64,000 nucleotides of DNA from assembly GCF_058153355.1 (NCBI RefSeq), contig NZ_CM177019.1; one strand, written 5' to 3'. Shown here one piece after another: positions 52,272-57,046 of the stretch (positions within the stretch are counted from its first letter, which is position 1; the number at the start of each line of letters is the position of its first letter). The translations under genes and the position numbers were made by a program. The notes beneath the pieces are model-generated. The model had not been told where the DNA came from and searched no databases. It worked only from the letters and a program-made list of their open reading frames with translations.

Positions 52272-53414
52272 ATGATAAATAAACACCCATCATTGTTTTC
52301 TCCTTTTATGCTGACAGAAAAAATAAAGCTACGTAATCGTATCGTTATGGCCCCTATGACGACCTGGTCAGCTAATCCTGATGGAACCATCTCTGAGCAA
52401 GAACTCGAATTTTATAAACGTCGCTCACAAAATGTTGGTTTAGTAATAACAGGATGCACCTATGTCACGCCAAGCGGCATTGGGTTTACTCATGAATTTG
52501 CCGCATATGACGACCGTTTCATTAACAGCCTTGAAAAGTTAGCTGCTGCAGCCAAAAGTGGCGGTGCTCCGGCTATTTTGCAGATTTTCCACGCCGGTAA
52601 TAAAGCCATCCCGGAGCTTGTGCCAAATTACGATGTTATTAGTGCCAGCGCATCAAGCGTAAAATCTGGTGACTTTATGAAGAGAGTGGTACAAAGCAGG
52701 GAAATGACTGAAAACGAAATTCAGGAAACCATTAGAGCATTCGGAGATGTCACAAAAAGGGCGATTAAAGCAGGTTTTGATGGCGTTGAACTTCATGGTG
52801 CGCACGGATTCCTTCTGCAGAATTTCTTCTCCCCTCTATTTAACCAGCGTAATGACCGATGGGGAGGAGATCTTGAAGGACGTATGCGCTTCCCGCTGGC
52901 CGTATTACAGGAAGTAAAAAATGTAGTCTATGAATATGCGAAAAAGCCCTTTGCCATCGGTTACAGAATATCTCCTGAAGAATCTGTAACAGGGGGGCTG
53001 CGGATAGAGGATACTTATAAACTCCTTGATCGGCTCATTTCATCCGGTATTTCGTATATACATACCTCGCTGGTCAGTATTAACGATAGCTACCCTGTTG
53101 AGTCGCCAAATGGCCCCCGAACTATTGAATTGATTTTAAATCATATTGCAGGCAGAGTGCCGGTAATCGCCGCAGGTAAAATACGCACACCGTCTCAGGC
53201 TCAAGAAGCAATTTCCGCTGGCCTGCCACTTGTTGCGATCGGTAAAGGGCTGGTGATAAATCCAGAATGGGTGACTTTAGCTGAATCAGGTAGAAGTCAT
53301 GAAATTCAAACAGCCCTTAATCCACAACGCGTTCCTGAATTAACCATTCCGGATAAACTATGGGATCAAATTCAGGCATCGAAAGGAACTGGCTGGTTTC
53401 CGTTAATGGATTAA
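52272..53414 (+). CDS. Old-yellow-enzyme family NADH:flavin oxidoreductase (NemA-like ene-reductase)
   Basis: 380 aa; OYE motifs (VMAPMTT, GFDGVELHGAHGFLLQNFFSP). Confidence 0.8.
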   Translation: MINKHPSLFSPFMLTEKIKLRNRIVMAPMTTWSANPDGTISEQELEFYKRRSQNVGLVITGCTYVTPSGIGFTHEFAAYDDRFINSLEKLAAAAKSGGAPAILQIFHAGNKAIPELVPNYDVISASASSVKSGDFMKRVVQSREMTENEIQETIRAFGDVTKRAIKAGFDGVELHGAHGFLLQNFFSPLFNQRNDRWGGDLEGRMRFPLAVLQEVKNVVYEYAKKPFAIGYRISPEESVTGGLRIEDTYKLLDRLISSGISYIHTSLVSINDSYPVESPNGPRTIELILNHIAGRVPVIAAGKIRTPSQAQEAISAGLPLVAIGKGLVINPEWVTLAESGRSHEIQTALNPQRVPELTIPDKLWDQIQASKGTGWFPLMD

Positions 53415-53885
53415 ATATCTATTACTCTCCCGAGAGTAAAACTATCAAACCAATGAGTAACCGATACAGCCTCGCAAATTCTTTCAGATAATTAACCCGT
53501 CACTGCGGCACGTTCTCTCATAAGGCGTGCCTGCTGTGTAATCCAGTATGTATCCGGCATACTTGACGGTTTAATAGAACTCAATTCCTTTCCCAGGTTA
53601 CCAACAACGATATCTTGTATAACACCCCAGGAGATACGACATTATGATGAGATGAGGTATGCTCCTCAGCGCCAATCAGCGCCAGGGCTGGGCCAGTTTG
53701 AGATCAGACTCATTCCCGGACTGACTTCAGGCGACATATATCAATGACGTTGGGGCAATAAAAGATAGCCGATGTAATACATCTATTCAAATTTGTGATA
53801 CATGTCAAAAAATTGGTTGACCAAACTCGTTATTTATATAAGGGCACTTACGAAGTGCACTCTTTTTTAAAGCGAGGAAGTACCA

Positions 53886-53987
53886 ATGAAAGAGAATAAA
53901 GTACAGCAAATCAGTCATAAACTGATTAATATCGTTGTTTTTGTCGCAATTGTAGAATACGCCTATTTATTTCTCCATTTCTATTAA
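53886..53987 (+). CDS. ykgR: Small membrane protein YkgR (33 aa)
   Basis: Not in the ORF track (below 60 aa). ATG at 53886 preceded by gaggaag; encodes MKENKVQQISHKLINIVVFVAIVEYAYLFLHFY with one hydrophobic helix; position next to ykgM matches K-12. Confidence 0.65.
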   Translation: MKENKVQQISHKLINIVVFVAIVEYAYLFLHFY

Positions 53988-54321
53988 TAACGGCAATAAA
54001 CTGTTCACTTCAGTGATATTTAAAATATGCATCCTCTCCCTTTTTTTTAAGTAATTATTATATCCGTGGGAGAGGAATACACGCTGTCAGGTAATCAATC
54101 AAACTGCGATAAATCATCGGCCAGTAAAGTGGAGATAGCCTCCATTCTCGAAAAATTCATACTCTCAGCGAAACCATCATCAATCACTCATCCAGGCGTT
54201 TATGGGAGCGTCGCCAATGGCTGCTAACAATGCCAGACTTCCCCGTTGCCGAAATTCCACATACCACAAATGGTCACAGGGATTGGGTGTTGAAATGATC
54301 CGGATGAGCATGTATCTTTAC

Positions 54322-54341
54322 GGTTATGTTATAACATAACA
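54322..54341. promoter_or_regulatory. Zur box upstream of ykgM-ykgO
   Basis: Palindrome GGTTATGTTATAACATAACA about 10-30 bp upstream of the ykgM start; matches the Zur operator consensus core TGTTATA.TATAACA. Confidence 0.7.
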
Positions 54342-54351
54342 GGTAAAAATG

Positions 54352-54615
54352 ATGAAACCCAATATCCATCCTGAGTATCGTACTGTGGTGTTCCATGACA
54401 CCAGTGTTGATGAGTACTTTAAAATCGGCTCGACTATCAAAACAGACCGTGAGATTGAGCTGGATGGCGTAACGTATCCGTACGTGACAATTGATGTCTC
54501 TTCGAAATCGCACCCGTTCTATACAGGGAAGCTGAGAACAGTGGCATCAGAAGGAAATGTTGCACGGTTCACCCAACGTTTTGGTCGTTTTGTTAGCACG
54601 AAAAAGGGGGCGTGA
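54352..54615 (+). CDS. ykgM: Zinc-independent ribosomal protein L31 paralog (type B)
   Basis: 87 aa from [13 protein letters not shown]31 family without the CxxC zinc ribbon. Confidence 0.85.
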
Positions 54616-54755
54616 TGAAAGTCCTTAACTCTCTGCGTACCGCAAAAGAACGCCATCCAGACTGTCAGATTGTGAAGCGAAAAGGACGGCTGTATGTGAT
54701 TTGTAAATCTAATCCACGTTTTAAGGCCGTTCAGGGGCGTAAGAAAAAGCGTTGA
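54615..54755 (+). CDS. ykgO: Ribosomal protein L36 paralog (zinc-independent)
   Basis: Not in the ORF track. ATG at 54615 overlaps the ykgM stop; encodes [46 protein letters not shown] (46 aa), L36 family. Confidence 0.8.
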
Positions 54756-54789
54756 TTCATAATTCGCCGGATTAACGATATTTGTCTGA

Positions 54790-55017
54790 TTAATAATCAG
54801 ACCGGATTAATGTTGGTGTATTGATTACACCAACATTAATTTTCCTGGAAATATATTCTTTAAGTTCATTTAAAGCCAACTGCCTGACGTTTCTCTCCGA
54901 ATATTCCATTATATTAATGTTGATTTGTTGACCAACTTCGCCCCTGTATGCTGGTATCAACTCTCTTTTAGACTGAACAAGCCACTCCGCCCCCTCCCTT
55001 TGCGGAGCAGCCTGCAT
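54790..55017 (-). CDS. ykgL: Hypothetical 75-aa protein (YkgL-like); questionable gene
   Basis: 75-aa ORF at the position I recall for K-12 ykgL, but its C-terminal 12 codons are encoded by the perfect palindrome listed above. Confidence 0.35.
   Translation of the reverse strand: MQAAPQREGAEWLVQSKRELIPAYRGEVGQQININIMEYSERNVRQLALNELKEYISRKINVGVINTPTLIRSDY
54806..54843 (+). terminator. Perfect hairpin downstream of ykgM-ykgO
   Basis: 15-bp perfect stem attaatgttggtgta / tacaccaacattaat with a 5-nt loop followed by TTT; a second small palindrome tctgattaataatcaga lies just upstream at 54785-54801. Confidence 0.5.
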
Positions 55018-55772
55018 TTACACTCAAACTGTTAAGATGATAAATGTGGTAAATCTGTTGGTACTAACATAAAAACGTTTACGCCACAGGAACAGCCTGA
55101 TCCACCGGTAACCCCATCGCCGACGTTCGAGTGCCAGTTAGAGTAACGCGCACAGATGACTGCACGCAGTGCCCTGTCAAAGAGGCCATCGTTCCTGTGA
55201 CAGCTGGCAGCCTTCGTTTAACTTCACTTAATTTGGCTCTTGGGGGGCTTACCGAACAGATGACGTAGTCACACCTATTCAATTTTTCACCACTTATTGG
55301 AGTAAACACCCATAACCATTTTGTGCGGCATGTTAATCCATTAAAACACCTTATTGATTGTCAAATATTCTTTAATGATGACCAACAATAGTTTTATGCT
55401 CTATTTATTATCATTAAAACTTGTTTTTTTACTAGTCGAGCACAAAACGCATTAAGACTATTCCTAACACCTCAGGGCAAAGTTCCTGGCTAATATAAAA
55501 TGCAAGTAAGAATTGAACGTTATATTGCCAATAACCTTATGAAACTGAATGTCTTTTTCTTCTTATCAAAAAAGCAATATTTTCATTTTTAGTAAATATT
55601 GACTTAACCATGGAATTCCTTTTCTGTTCACATATTGACACTCATCAGGAAAAAAACATAAATTTAAGCCCAATCGAAAATAATTAAAACTTAATCTCGT
55701 TTAACCTATATTGATATGTGCTACGTATCTTATTTACTTCCGATTTACTAACAACACTGAATGTACCTGTAA

Positions 55773-56384
<612 letters not shown>

Positions 56385-56458
56385 ACTCCAGGCAAGTTAG
56401 TTTTAAAAAATGACTCACAGGGACATCATGTCCTCAATTTAACTCGGGAAGAAAAGCA

Positions 56459-57046
56459 ATGAAAAAAAAGGTTCTGGCAATAGCTCTGGTAACGGTGTTT
56501 ACCGGCATGGGTGTGGCGCAGGCTGCTGACGTAACAGCTCAGGCTGTAGCGACCTGGTCGGCAACAGCCAAAAAAGACACCACCAGTAAACTGGTGGTGA
56601 CGCCACTCGGTAGCCTGGCGTTCCAGTATGCCGAAGGCATTAAAGGTTTTAACTCACAGAAAGGTCTATTTGACGTGGCTATTGAGGGTGACTCAACGGC
56701 TACCGCCTTTAAACTGACCTCACGTCTTATCACCAACACCTTAACCCAGTTGGATACCTCAGGTTCCACACTGAATGTGGGCGTGGATTATAACGGCGCG
56801 GCAGTCGAAAAAACTGGCGATACCGTGATGATCGATACCGCCAACGGCGTACTGGGCGGCAACCTTAGCCCGCTGGCTAACGGCTACAATGCCAGCAATC
56901 GTACCACCGCACAGGATGGTTTCACCTTCTCCATCATCAGCGGTACCACCAATGGTACCACCGCAGTAACCGATTACAGCACTCTACCGGAAGGCATCTG
57001 GAGCGGCGACGTTAGCGTACAGTTCGACGCTACCTGGACCAGTTGA
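56459..57046 (+). CDS. ecpA: E. coli common pilus major subunit EcpA (MatB)
   Basis: 195 aa, signal peptide (..[10 protein letters not shown]), Thr/Gly-rich pilin. Confidence 0.85.

Follow-up and report, generated by a model that had tools for sequence, protein, structure and literature searches.

The segment at 55080-55320 between ykgL and ecpR (referred to here as the patch) is, with a probability that we put at roughly 80%, a composite relic: a dead fragment of an IS3-family transposase gene, joined to the far, weakly constrained end of the region upstream of the ecp operon. Its left part descends from an IS3-family element, of which about 190 bp of the transposase gene are left; both terminal inverted repeats, together with orfA and the DDE domain, are gone. 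Its right part is the distal end of a stretch of roughly 680 bp that lies upstream of ecp in other genera as well and accompanies the operon there. At the IS fragment, synteny breaks between ykgMO on one side and ecp on the other, and a rearrangement or insertion that joined the two in an Escherichia ancestor is most likely what the fragment records. How large the original insertion was, and in which order the events took place, is extrapolated from the approximately 190 bp that can be assigned to the IS. We infer that the patch needs no function of its own. All positions given below refer to the window, the whole 64-kb stretch of DNA that was analysed.

Locus and base composition

The patch lies in the ykg-ecp locus of an Escherichia coli-type genome, as judged from the list of open reading frames and from how K-12 and the closest genome are annotated. 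The locus is arranged as follows.

53886-53987, ykgR
54349-54615, ykgM
54616-54755, ykgO
54790-55017, minus strand, ykgL
825 bp, the ykgL-ecpR intergenic region
55842-56384, ecpR, with its ATG at 55842; ecpA is next

Neither K-12 nor the other records listed carry any annotation between ykgL and ecpR (matA). The patch is single-copy and is present in 5045 of 5426 complete E. coli genomes (about 93%). In MG1655 (NC_000913.3) it falls at roughly 311,800-312,110. Taken in steps of 100 nt, the G+C content is 0.49-0.58 across 55050-55250 and 0.24-0.34 across 55350-55750; by segment, it is 0.506 for 55080-55320, 0.298 for the proximal ecp upstream region and 0.488 for the whole 64-kb window. The initial annotation had described a GC-rich segment embedded in AT-rich DNA. 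The step in composition is real (0.51 versus 0.30), but a value of 0.51 is close to the window average of 0.49. The patch is therefore average in composition and stands out only against an unusually AT-rich neighbour: it appears GC-rich because near-average DNA adjoins the very AT-rich proximal ecp promoter region. Klebsiella shows the same gradient, with a G+C content of 0.46-0.48 in the distal and 0.33 in the proximal part. A 398-bp H-NS-associated 'promoter island' has been listed between ecpR and ykgL (PMC3661553); with its older K-12 coordinates converted approximately, it probably corresponds to the AT-rich part, at about 55425-55822, and not to the patch.

The left part: a fragment of an IS3-family transposase gene

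Two parts of different origin can be distinguished in and around the patch.

54979-55166, minus strand, left part: internal fragment (about 190 bp) of an IS3-family (ISEhe4-like) transposase gene, from blastn, nhmmer and a translated match
About 55167-55345, no strand, right part: distal end of the ecpR upstream (regulatory/intergenic) region, from nhmmer and a multi-genus alignment

The left part covers 55080-55166 of the segment originally marked out and contains both the left arm of a 9-nt inverted repeat and the start codon of ykgL. In a blastn search against 7.3 Gb of plasmid sequence it matches IS3-family transposase genes at 68-74% identity, the best matches reaching 72-74% over 159-186 nt. 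The plasmids come from Erwinia pyri (73.5% over 159 nt of the IS3 transposase gene, E = 2e-14), Pantoea, Klebsiella, Enterobacter and E. coli, and ISEhe4 is among the matches; the phage collection contained no match to the patch. A profile was built from the alignment of six intact IS copies, in which the element measures 1221 bp and has the ends TGACCTGCTCCCC...GGGGGCAGGTCA. With this profile, nhmmer found a sole match in the 64-kb window, at 55166-54979 on the minus strand (81.9 bits, E = 1.2e-25), and no match in any of 50 shuffles. The profile also matched K-12 (81.7 bits) and the divergent Escherichia locus L003 (69.7 bits) at the orthologous place, and in the window, K-12 and L003 alike the match lies on the strand opposite to ecpR.

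Within the 1221-bp element, the matched stretch spans positions 466-655 and encodes the HTH_21 region in the N-terminus of OrfB. In the translated match, LALERRRWGYRWIRLFLWRK and YQQIYHIYHLNSLSV align with LALERRRFGYRRIWQLLRRE and HKRVYRIYHLNGLSV of the IS relatives, and the OrfB frame can be followed with a single frameshift, reading LALERRRWGYRWIRLFLWRKRFYVSTNR and then YQQIYHIYHLNSLSVNAGCSAKG against LALERRRFGYRRIWQLLRREGLHVNHKRVYRIYHLNGLSVKRRRRRKG. The IS-like stretch of L003 is kept in one frame, interrupted by two stop codons. The reference IS element scores 246.6 bits against NF033516 (transpos_IS3), for which the cut-off is 160, and is by this match a bona fide IS3-family transposase; its HTH_21, OrfB residues 47-100, matches the stretch found in the left part. 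The G+C content of the fragment is 0.505, compared with 0.54-0.57 for the corresponding stretch of intact relatives.

The rest of the element was sought on both sides. Neither of the IS ends, TGACCTGC... and ...GCAGGTCA, was matched, the nhmmer alignment covering only positions 466-655 of the 1221 in the profile, and nhmmer detected neither orfA nor any other part of the IS beyond the approximately 190 bp. In the minus-strand frames of 54600-55450 the Pfam models HTH_Tnp_1, HTH_21 and rve gave no match. An upstream extension was tried with an alignment of 55167-55400 to the 5' 470 nt of the IS, which for the Erwinia copy was equalled by 7-22 of 200-300 shuffles and for the other five copies by 121-200 of 200; this extension, including a resemblance aligned by eye between 'EGCQLSQERW' and 'EATGLSQRRAC' of OrfB, was dropped because the shuffle signal was inconsistent across copies. 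A downstream extension into the body of ykgL, where 54885-54933 resembles the 3' end of the IS (score 43, against a shuffle maximum of 39), was likewise rejected, the resemblance being marginal, confined to one IS copy and without a match in nhmmer. Full-length plasmid matches were F-prime plasmids or chromosome-sized records with the same chromosomal locus and do not speak for mobility. The left part is a relic and not a mobile element, and the suggestion made at the outset, that the patch might be a remnant of an older insertion, is borne out for 54979-55166.

The right part: the distal end of the ecp upstream region

Loci anchored on EcpR were collected in other genera by a genome scan and by exact-protein look-ups. 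Using a profile of three Escherichia sequences, nhmmer recovered the K. pneumoniae-type loci L018, L019 and L023 at 57-74 bits (E = 4e-23 to 5e-18), with homology reaching back to about 55205 and, for one locus, to about 55160. Homology of the Enterobacter mori locus (L021) to the profile of the right part was weak, at 10 bits. Plain blastn of the other genera against the window found homology only from 55450 on and in a 32-nt block at 55311-55342 (90-94% identity), and the multi-genus alignment is collinear from the right part through to ecpR. By these alignments the right part travels with the ecp operon across genera, and since other genera show both profile homology and collinearity, we regard it as the far end of the DNA that moves together with the operon. 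The junction between the two parts lies within 55167-55183 and is placed to about 15 nt.

The Klebsiella loci lack ykgMO and have a phosphonate-type (phn-type) ABC transporter operon next to the ecpR upstream region instead; this IS was not detected in them. A single ancestral cassette, with an IS breakpoint common to E. mori and Escherichia, was also considered and rejected, as the relic in E. mori belongs to a different IS3-family lineage (5.8 bits to the IS profile and about 30% amino-acid identity). The agreement between the E. mori and Escherichia breakpoints was set aside, since local alignments naturally start at the conserved HTH_21 region.

Sequence constraint

Nucleotide diversity was obtained from 13 E. 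coli-type sequences.

54349-54615, ykgM, 0.016
54616-54755, ykgO, 0.014
54790-54978, ykgL body (non-IS), 0.050
54979-55166, left part, 0.046
55167-55345, right part, 0.061
55346-55448, AT-rich spacer, 0.125
55449-55841, proximal region, 0.038
55842-56384, ecpR, 0.022

Compared with the neighbouring genes, the patch evolves at two to four times the rate. One short element at its edge is strictly conserved.

55318-55330, right edge of the patch, invariant 13-nt box ATTTTGTGCGGCA

This box is identical in all 21 aligned Escherichia sequences, in three K. pneumoniae-type loci and in E. mori. It is, as far as these alignments reach, the only strongly constrained element in or next to the patch, and is probably a protein-binding site of the ecp control region. 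Together with the adjoining hypervariable spacer, it may interest students of strain differences in ecp/mat regulation.

Possible distal sites for ecp regulators

MatA/EcpR acts together with RcsB, H-NS represses and IHF also takes part in ecp control (reviewed in PMC5651002). The pentamer TTCCT occurs six times in the 825-bp intergenic region, where about 1.5 copies are expected from the 120 in 64 kb, and is present once in each arm of the 9-nt repeat; moreover, 55183-55197 resembles 55474-55488 at 12 of 15 positions. EcpR is said to bind two distal TTCCT boxes. These observations, together with the homology of the right part across genera and the invariant box in which it ends, are what would be expected of a distal protein-binding module, in which the TTCCT arms would serve as extra EcpR/RcsB-type sites alongside the proximal boxes and would act, for example, via DNA looping or by limiting the spreading of H-NS. 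We consider such a module improbable, as both TTCCT copies of the patch are E. coli-specific. The left-arm copy arose in IS-derived DNA and is absent in L003, and the right-arm copy is altered to TTCCC in L003, to TTCCG in O157 and to TCCCC or TTCCC in Klebsiella and E. mori. L003, Klebsiella and E. mori have neither box, O157 has only one, and the TTCCT boxes of the patch do not follow the ecp operon wherever it occurs. The proximal boxes, in contrast, are kept across genera at about 55461 and 55483 (within about 55453-55490), beside an RcsAB-box-like TAAGACTATTCCTA at 55453-55466. The diversity of the patch relative to its flanking genes also speaks against a conserved module.

More generally, it seems unlikely that the patch has been put to use in Escherichia, whether as a lineage-specific distal ecp module or by supplying a promoter or start codon for ykgL from the IS relic. 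In the former version the TTCCT arms and ATTTTGTGCGGCA would bind EcpR/RcsB or would form the boundary of an H-NS-silenced promoter island.

Inverted repeats and the possibility of an RNA element

The inverted repeats lie at the following positions.

55085-55093, inside the IS fragment, left arm of the 9-nt repeat, CACAGGAAC
55191-55199, in the ecp-upstream DNA of the right part, right arm of the 9-nt repeat, GTTCCTGTG
55174-55179 and 55198-55203, at the junction of the two parts, 6-nt repeat CTGTCA(18 nt)TGACAG

Both repeats exist as reported in the initial annotation, with coordinates corrected here by 1-2 nt (one nucleotide per arm for the 9-nt repeat). The 9-nt repeat is perfect and its arms are 97 nt apart. 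Of 300 dinucleotide shuffles of 55060-55340, 6% contain a perfect inverted repeat of 9 nt or more, which makes the 9-nt repeat unremarkable for a feature picked from 64 kb. At the position of its left arm the intact IS relatives read GGCAGTTATTGCG (transposase strand) and L003 reads CGCCAGAAC; at that of the right arm, L003 reads GTTCCCATG, O157 GTTCCGGTG, the K. pneumoniae locus L018 GTCCCCGTG and E. mori TTTCCCGTG. Because the left arm is IS-derived and the right arm belongs to the ecp-upstream DNA, the 9-nt repeat is a chance juxtaposition, and on this comparison the inverted repeats in general are chance matches between DNA of two origins. The 9-nt repeat may nevertheless have an Escherichia-specific role.

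That the patch encodes a small RNA, or an RNA structure folding via the inverted repeats and acting in cis on ykgL or the ecp operon, is very unlikely. The 9-nt repeat is kept in 20 of 21 aligned Escherichia sequences other than L003, which are close relatives among which invariance says little. Covariation was assessed in an alignment of nine sequences (the window, K-12, six diverse E. coli and the divergent lineage L003). In L003 three of the nine pairs of the 9-nt helix are broken, and an O157 strain breaks one. Of the cells of this alignment that belong to the 6-nt helix, 75.9% are paired; the pair between alignment columns 111 and 134 forms in one of the nine sequences, and that between columns 108 and 137 is broken in four. 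The complete 6-nt stem is found in only three of 13 sequences (the window, L001 and L034). No pair of either repeat is altered on both sides among the nine sequences, whose diversity is limited, and the RNAalifold covariation term is +0.26 kcal/mol. The paired positions are largely unconserved, which is one half of the outcome that had been named beforehand as refuting the proposal.

The folding energy is ordinary on both strands: for 55070-55330 the minimum free energy has z-scores of -0.84 (plus) and -0.87 (minus), and 38-39 of 200 shuffles fold at least as well. A scan of 53500-56500 against Rfam 15, with E values up to 10, gave no match in the patch and only chance-level eukaryotic families elsewhere, the nearest being a eukaryotic lncRNA model with a match ending at 55080. 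No terminator-like site was found in the region. The ecp transcript reportedly begins about 121 nt ahead of ecpR, which is well downstream of the patch. The earlier proposal of a small RNA or regulatory structure thus finds no support in Rfam, folding energy or covariation, and the arms of the 9-nt repeat are of two origins. The one hint of transcription on the minus strand is that ykgL and ykgO have been listed in an RNA-seq analysis as convergently overlapping transcripts, a convergent excludon (PMC12288877); some such transcription may start in or beyond the patch, which would leave room for an RNA on that strand.

ykgL and the 76-codon reading frame

The reported transcription of ykgL, overlapping ykgO, could be held to favour a patch that acts as promoter and 5' leader for ykgL, with the IS relic co-opted for a young small gene. 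The IS fragment contains the start codon of ykgL (55017) and the first 13 codons of the gene, and the patch adjoins ykgL directly on its upstream side, on the same strand. Such a leader is nevertheless very unlikely: the minus strand upstream of ykgL yielded no sigma-70-like promoter, and the gene itself shows no purifying selection, with one synonymous and 16 non-synonymous codon changes relative to K-12. It is annotated as frameshifted in several strains, is called as a gene in five of ten loci and is not conserved in L003.

ykgL evolves without coding constraint. For this reason, and because its start codon lies inside the relic, we regard its status as a real gene as doubtful.

The remaining reading frame of the patch is the following.

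55079-55309, minus strand, 76-aa open reading frame with a GTG start, from the list of open reading frames

That this frame encodes a small protein can be dismissed: although open for 76 codons, it is frameshifted in K-12 and many other strains because the poly-G run at 55243-55248 differs in length (5 to 7 G between strains), is disrupted in L003, has substitutions relative to K-12 that are spread evenly over the codon positions (8, 5 and 6, with 0, 0 and 5 in the control ykgM and 0, 0 and 4 in the control ykgO), matches nothing in Pfam or NCBIfam, and crosses IS-derived DNA in the wrong frame in its 3' part. The first reading of the sequence had already judged it not protein-like, with which these results agree. 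Nothing relevant was found by Pfam or NCBIfam in stop-masked minus-strand frames or in the stitched IS-like peptide. A tblastx similarity of the 76-aa frame to the Klebsiella loci (about 700-865) was rejected, being antisense to an ABC-transporter permease gene and having E values of at least 0.15.

Significance and comparison with known systems

The composite relic adds to the annotation of E. coli a so far unannotated IS3-family relic, found in about 93% of complete genomes, K-12 included. It explains the step in composition and suggests how the ecp operon came to lie beside ykgMO. It also removes a lead, as support for a new RNA element at this place is nil, and it casts doubt on ykgL.

The patch shares with the Rfam intergenic RNAs and small RNAs of the Enterobacteriaceae its intergenic position, a G+C content higher than that of its surroundings and the presence of inverted repeats, but matches no family, folds no more stably than shuffles, and shows neither covariation nor a terminator. 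The experimentally described ecp sites lie, as we take it, within the AT-rich proximal part; compared with them, the patch is the poorly conserved distal end, with no function assigned. ISEhe4-type elements, for which the PGAP name is 'IS3-like element ISEhe4 family transposase', are known as intact 1221-bp copies on pPATH of Pantoea agglomerans and on plasmids of Erwinia pyri, Klebsiella and E. coli. The left part is homologous to these elements at the DNA level and in the reading direction of the transposase, but amounts to about 15% of their length and is without the terminal inverted repeats, orfA, the frameshift site and the DDE (rve) domain, its frame being broken and its composition decayed towards AT. 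The closest counterpart of the remainder is the ecp (mat) upstream region of E. coli and Klebsiella; the sequence from 55167 onwards contains conserved boxes and is collinear with K. pneumoniae-type and E. mori loci.

Conserved elements upstream of ecpR

Three adjacent segments occupy the right edge of the patch (55080-55320 in the ykgL-ecpR intergenic region) and the DNA that follows it:

55318-55330, distal box ATTTTGTGCGGCA, within a wider block at 55311-55342
55346-55448, AT-rich spacer that separates the two boxes
55453-55466, Rcs-like box TAAGACTATTCCTA (Klebsiella form TAAGAATATTCCTA)

The distal box is identical across every Escherichia sequence examined, the K. pneumoniae-type loci and Enterobacter mori. 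It precedes the ecpR ATG by about 515 nt; the DNA around it is otherwise poorly conserved, and comparison of the box with known binding motifs returned no match. The Rcs-like box is kept across genera in the multi-genus alignment and is followed on its 3' side by a second conserved element, TCCTGG, at about 55484-55489. The box is a close likeness of the RcsAB-box consensus, and the two elements are probably the known EcpR/RcsB sites.

The AT-rich spacer is hypervariable within E. coli, with a nucleotide diversity of 0.125 and a maximum pairwise distance of 0.25, whereas the diversity of the flanking genes is 0.014-0.022. When a 1041-bp query comprising ykgL and the intergenic region was used, 5050 of the 5073 matching records showed 90-95% identity to the window and only one reached at least 99%; with the patch alone as the query, 47 records were at least 99% identical. 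This difference suggests mosaic haplotypes. Length variation is also found inside the patch, in the following feature:

55243-55248, poly-G run

The run comprises five to seven G among strains and sometimes reads AGGGGG, and because of this variation the 76-aa minus-strand frame at 55079-55309, judged not to be a gene, is either open or closed.

Status of ykgL and neighbouring palindromes

The left side of the region contains the following features:

54784-54802, 9-nt palindrome
54790-55017, minus strand, ykgL
54806-54840, perfect 15-nt palindrome ATTAATGTTGGTGTA / TACACCAACATTAAT with a 5-nt loop

Relative to K-12, the ykgL ORF carries 16 non-synonymous codon changes and one synonymous change (11, 6 and 4 by codon position). 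It is annotated as frameshifted or as a pseudogene in several E. coli, is called as a gene in only five of ten loci and has no conserved counterpart in L003, the divergent Escherichia locus. Judged by these comparisons, ykgL is unlikely to be a genuine conserved gene. The IS fragment (54979-55166) contains its start codon together with the first 13 codons, in a frame different from that of the transposase. Both palindromes are situated closely 3' of ykgO, within the ykgL ORF, and may form the ykgMO terminator; neither was called in a simple terminator scan.

Comparison with other loci and strains

Transposase DNA is also present directly upstream of ecpR in further ecp loci:

L021 (Enterobacter mori CP071064.1) 1795-2274, strand opposite to ecpR, decayed IS3-family orfB pseudogene
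L019 (one E. coli assembly) 1279-2202, DDE_Tnp_1 transposase gene

The E. mori pseudogene (tblastn E = 8e-12) belongs to an IS3-family lineage different from that of the IS fragment in the window and, like that fragment, is oriented opposite to ecpR. It seems that IS elements insert readily into the DNA on the upstream side of the ecp operon, or that they help the operon to move. A duplicated or second ecp-like cluster is suggested for Klebsiella oxytoca, where contig NZ_BCZK01000002.1 carries, roughly 7.5 kb away from the first EcpR-like gene, a second one with 54% identity.

Gene content also differs upstream of ykgR, where the window carries:

52272-53414, intact gene for a 380-aa NADH-dependent flavin oxidoreductase (Oxidored_FMN)

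At the equivalent site K-12 has only a ykgP pseudogene fragment followed by eaeH, and other strains have an intimin-like gene in place of the oxidoreductase.
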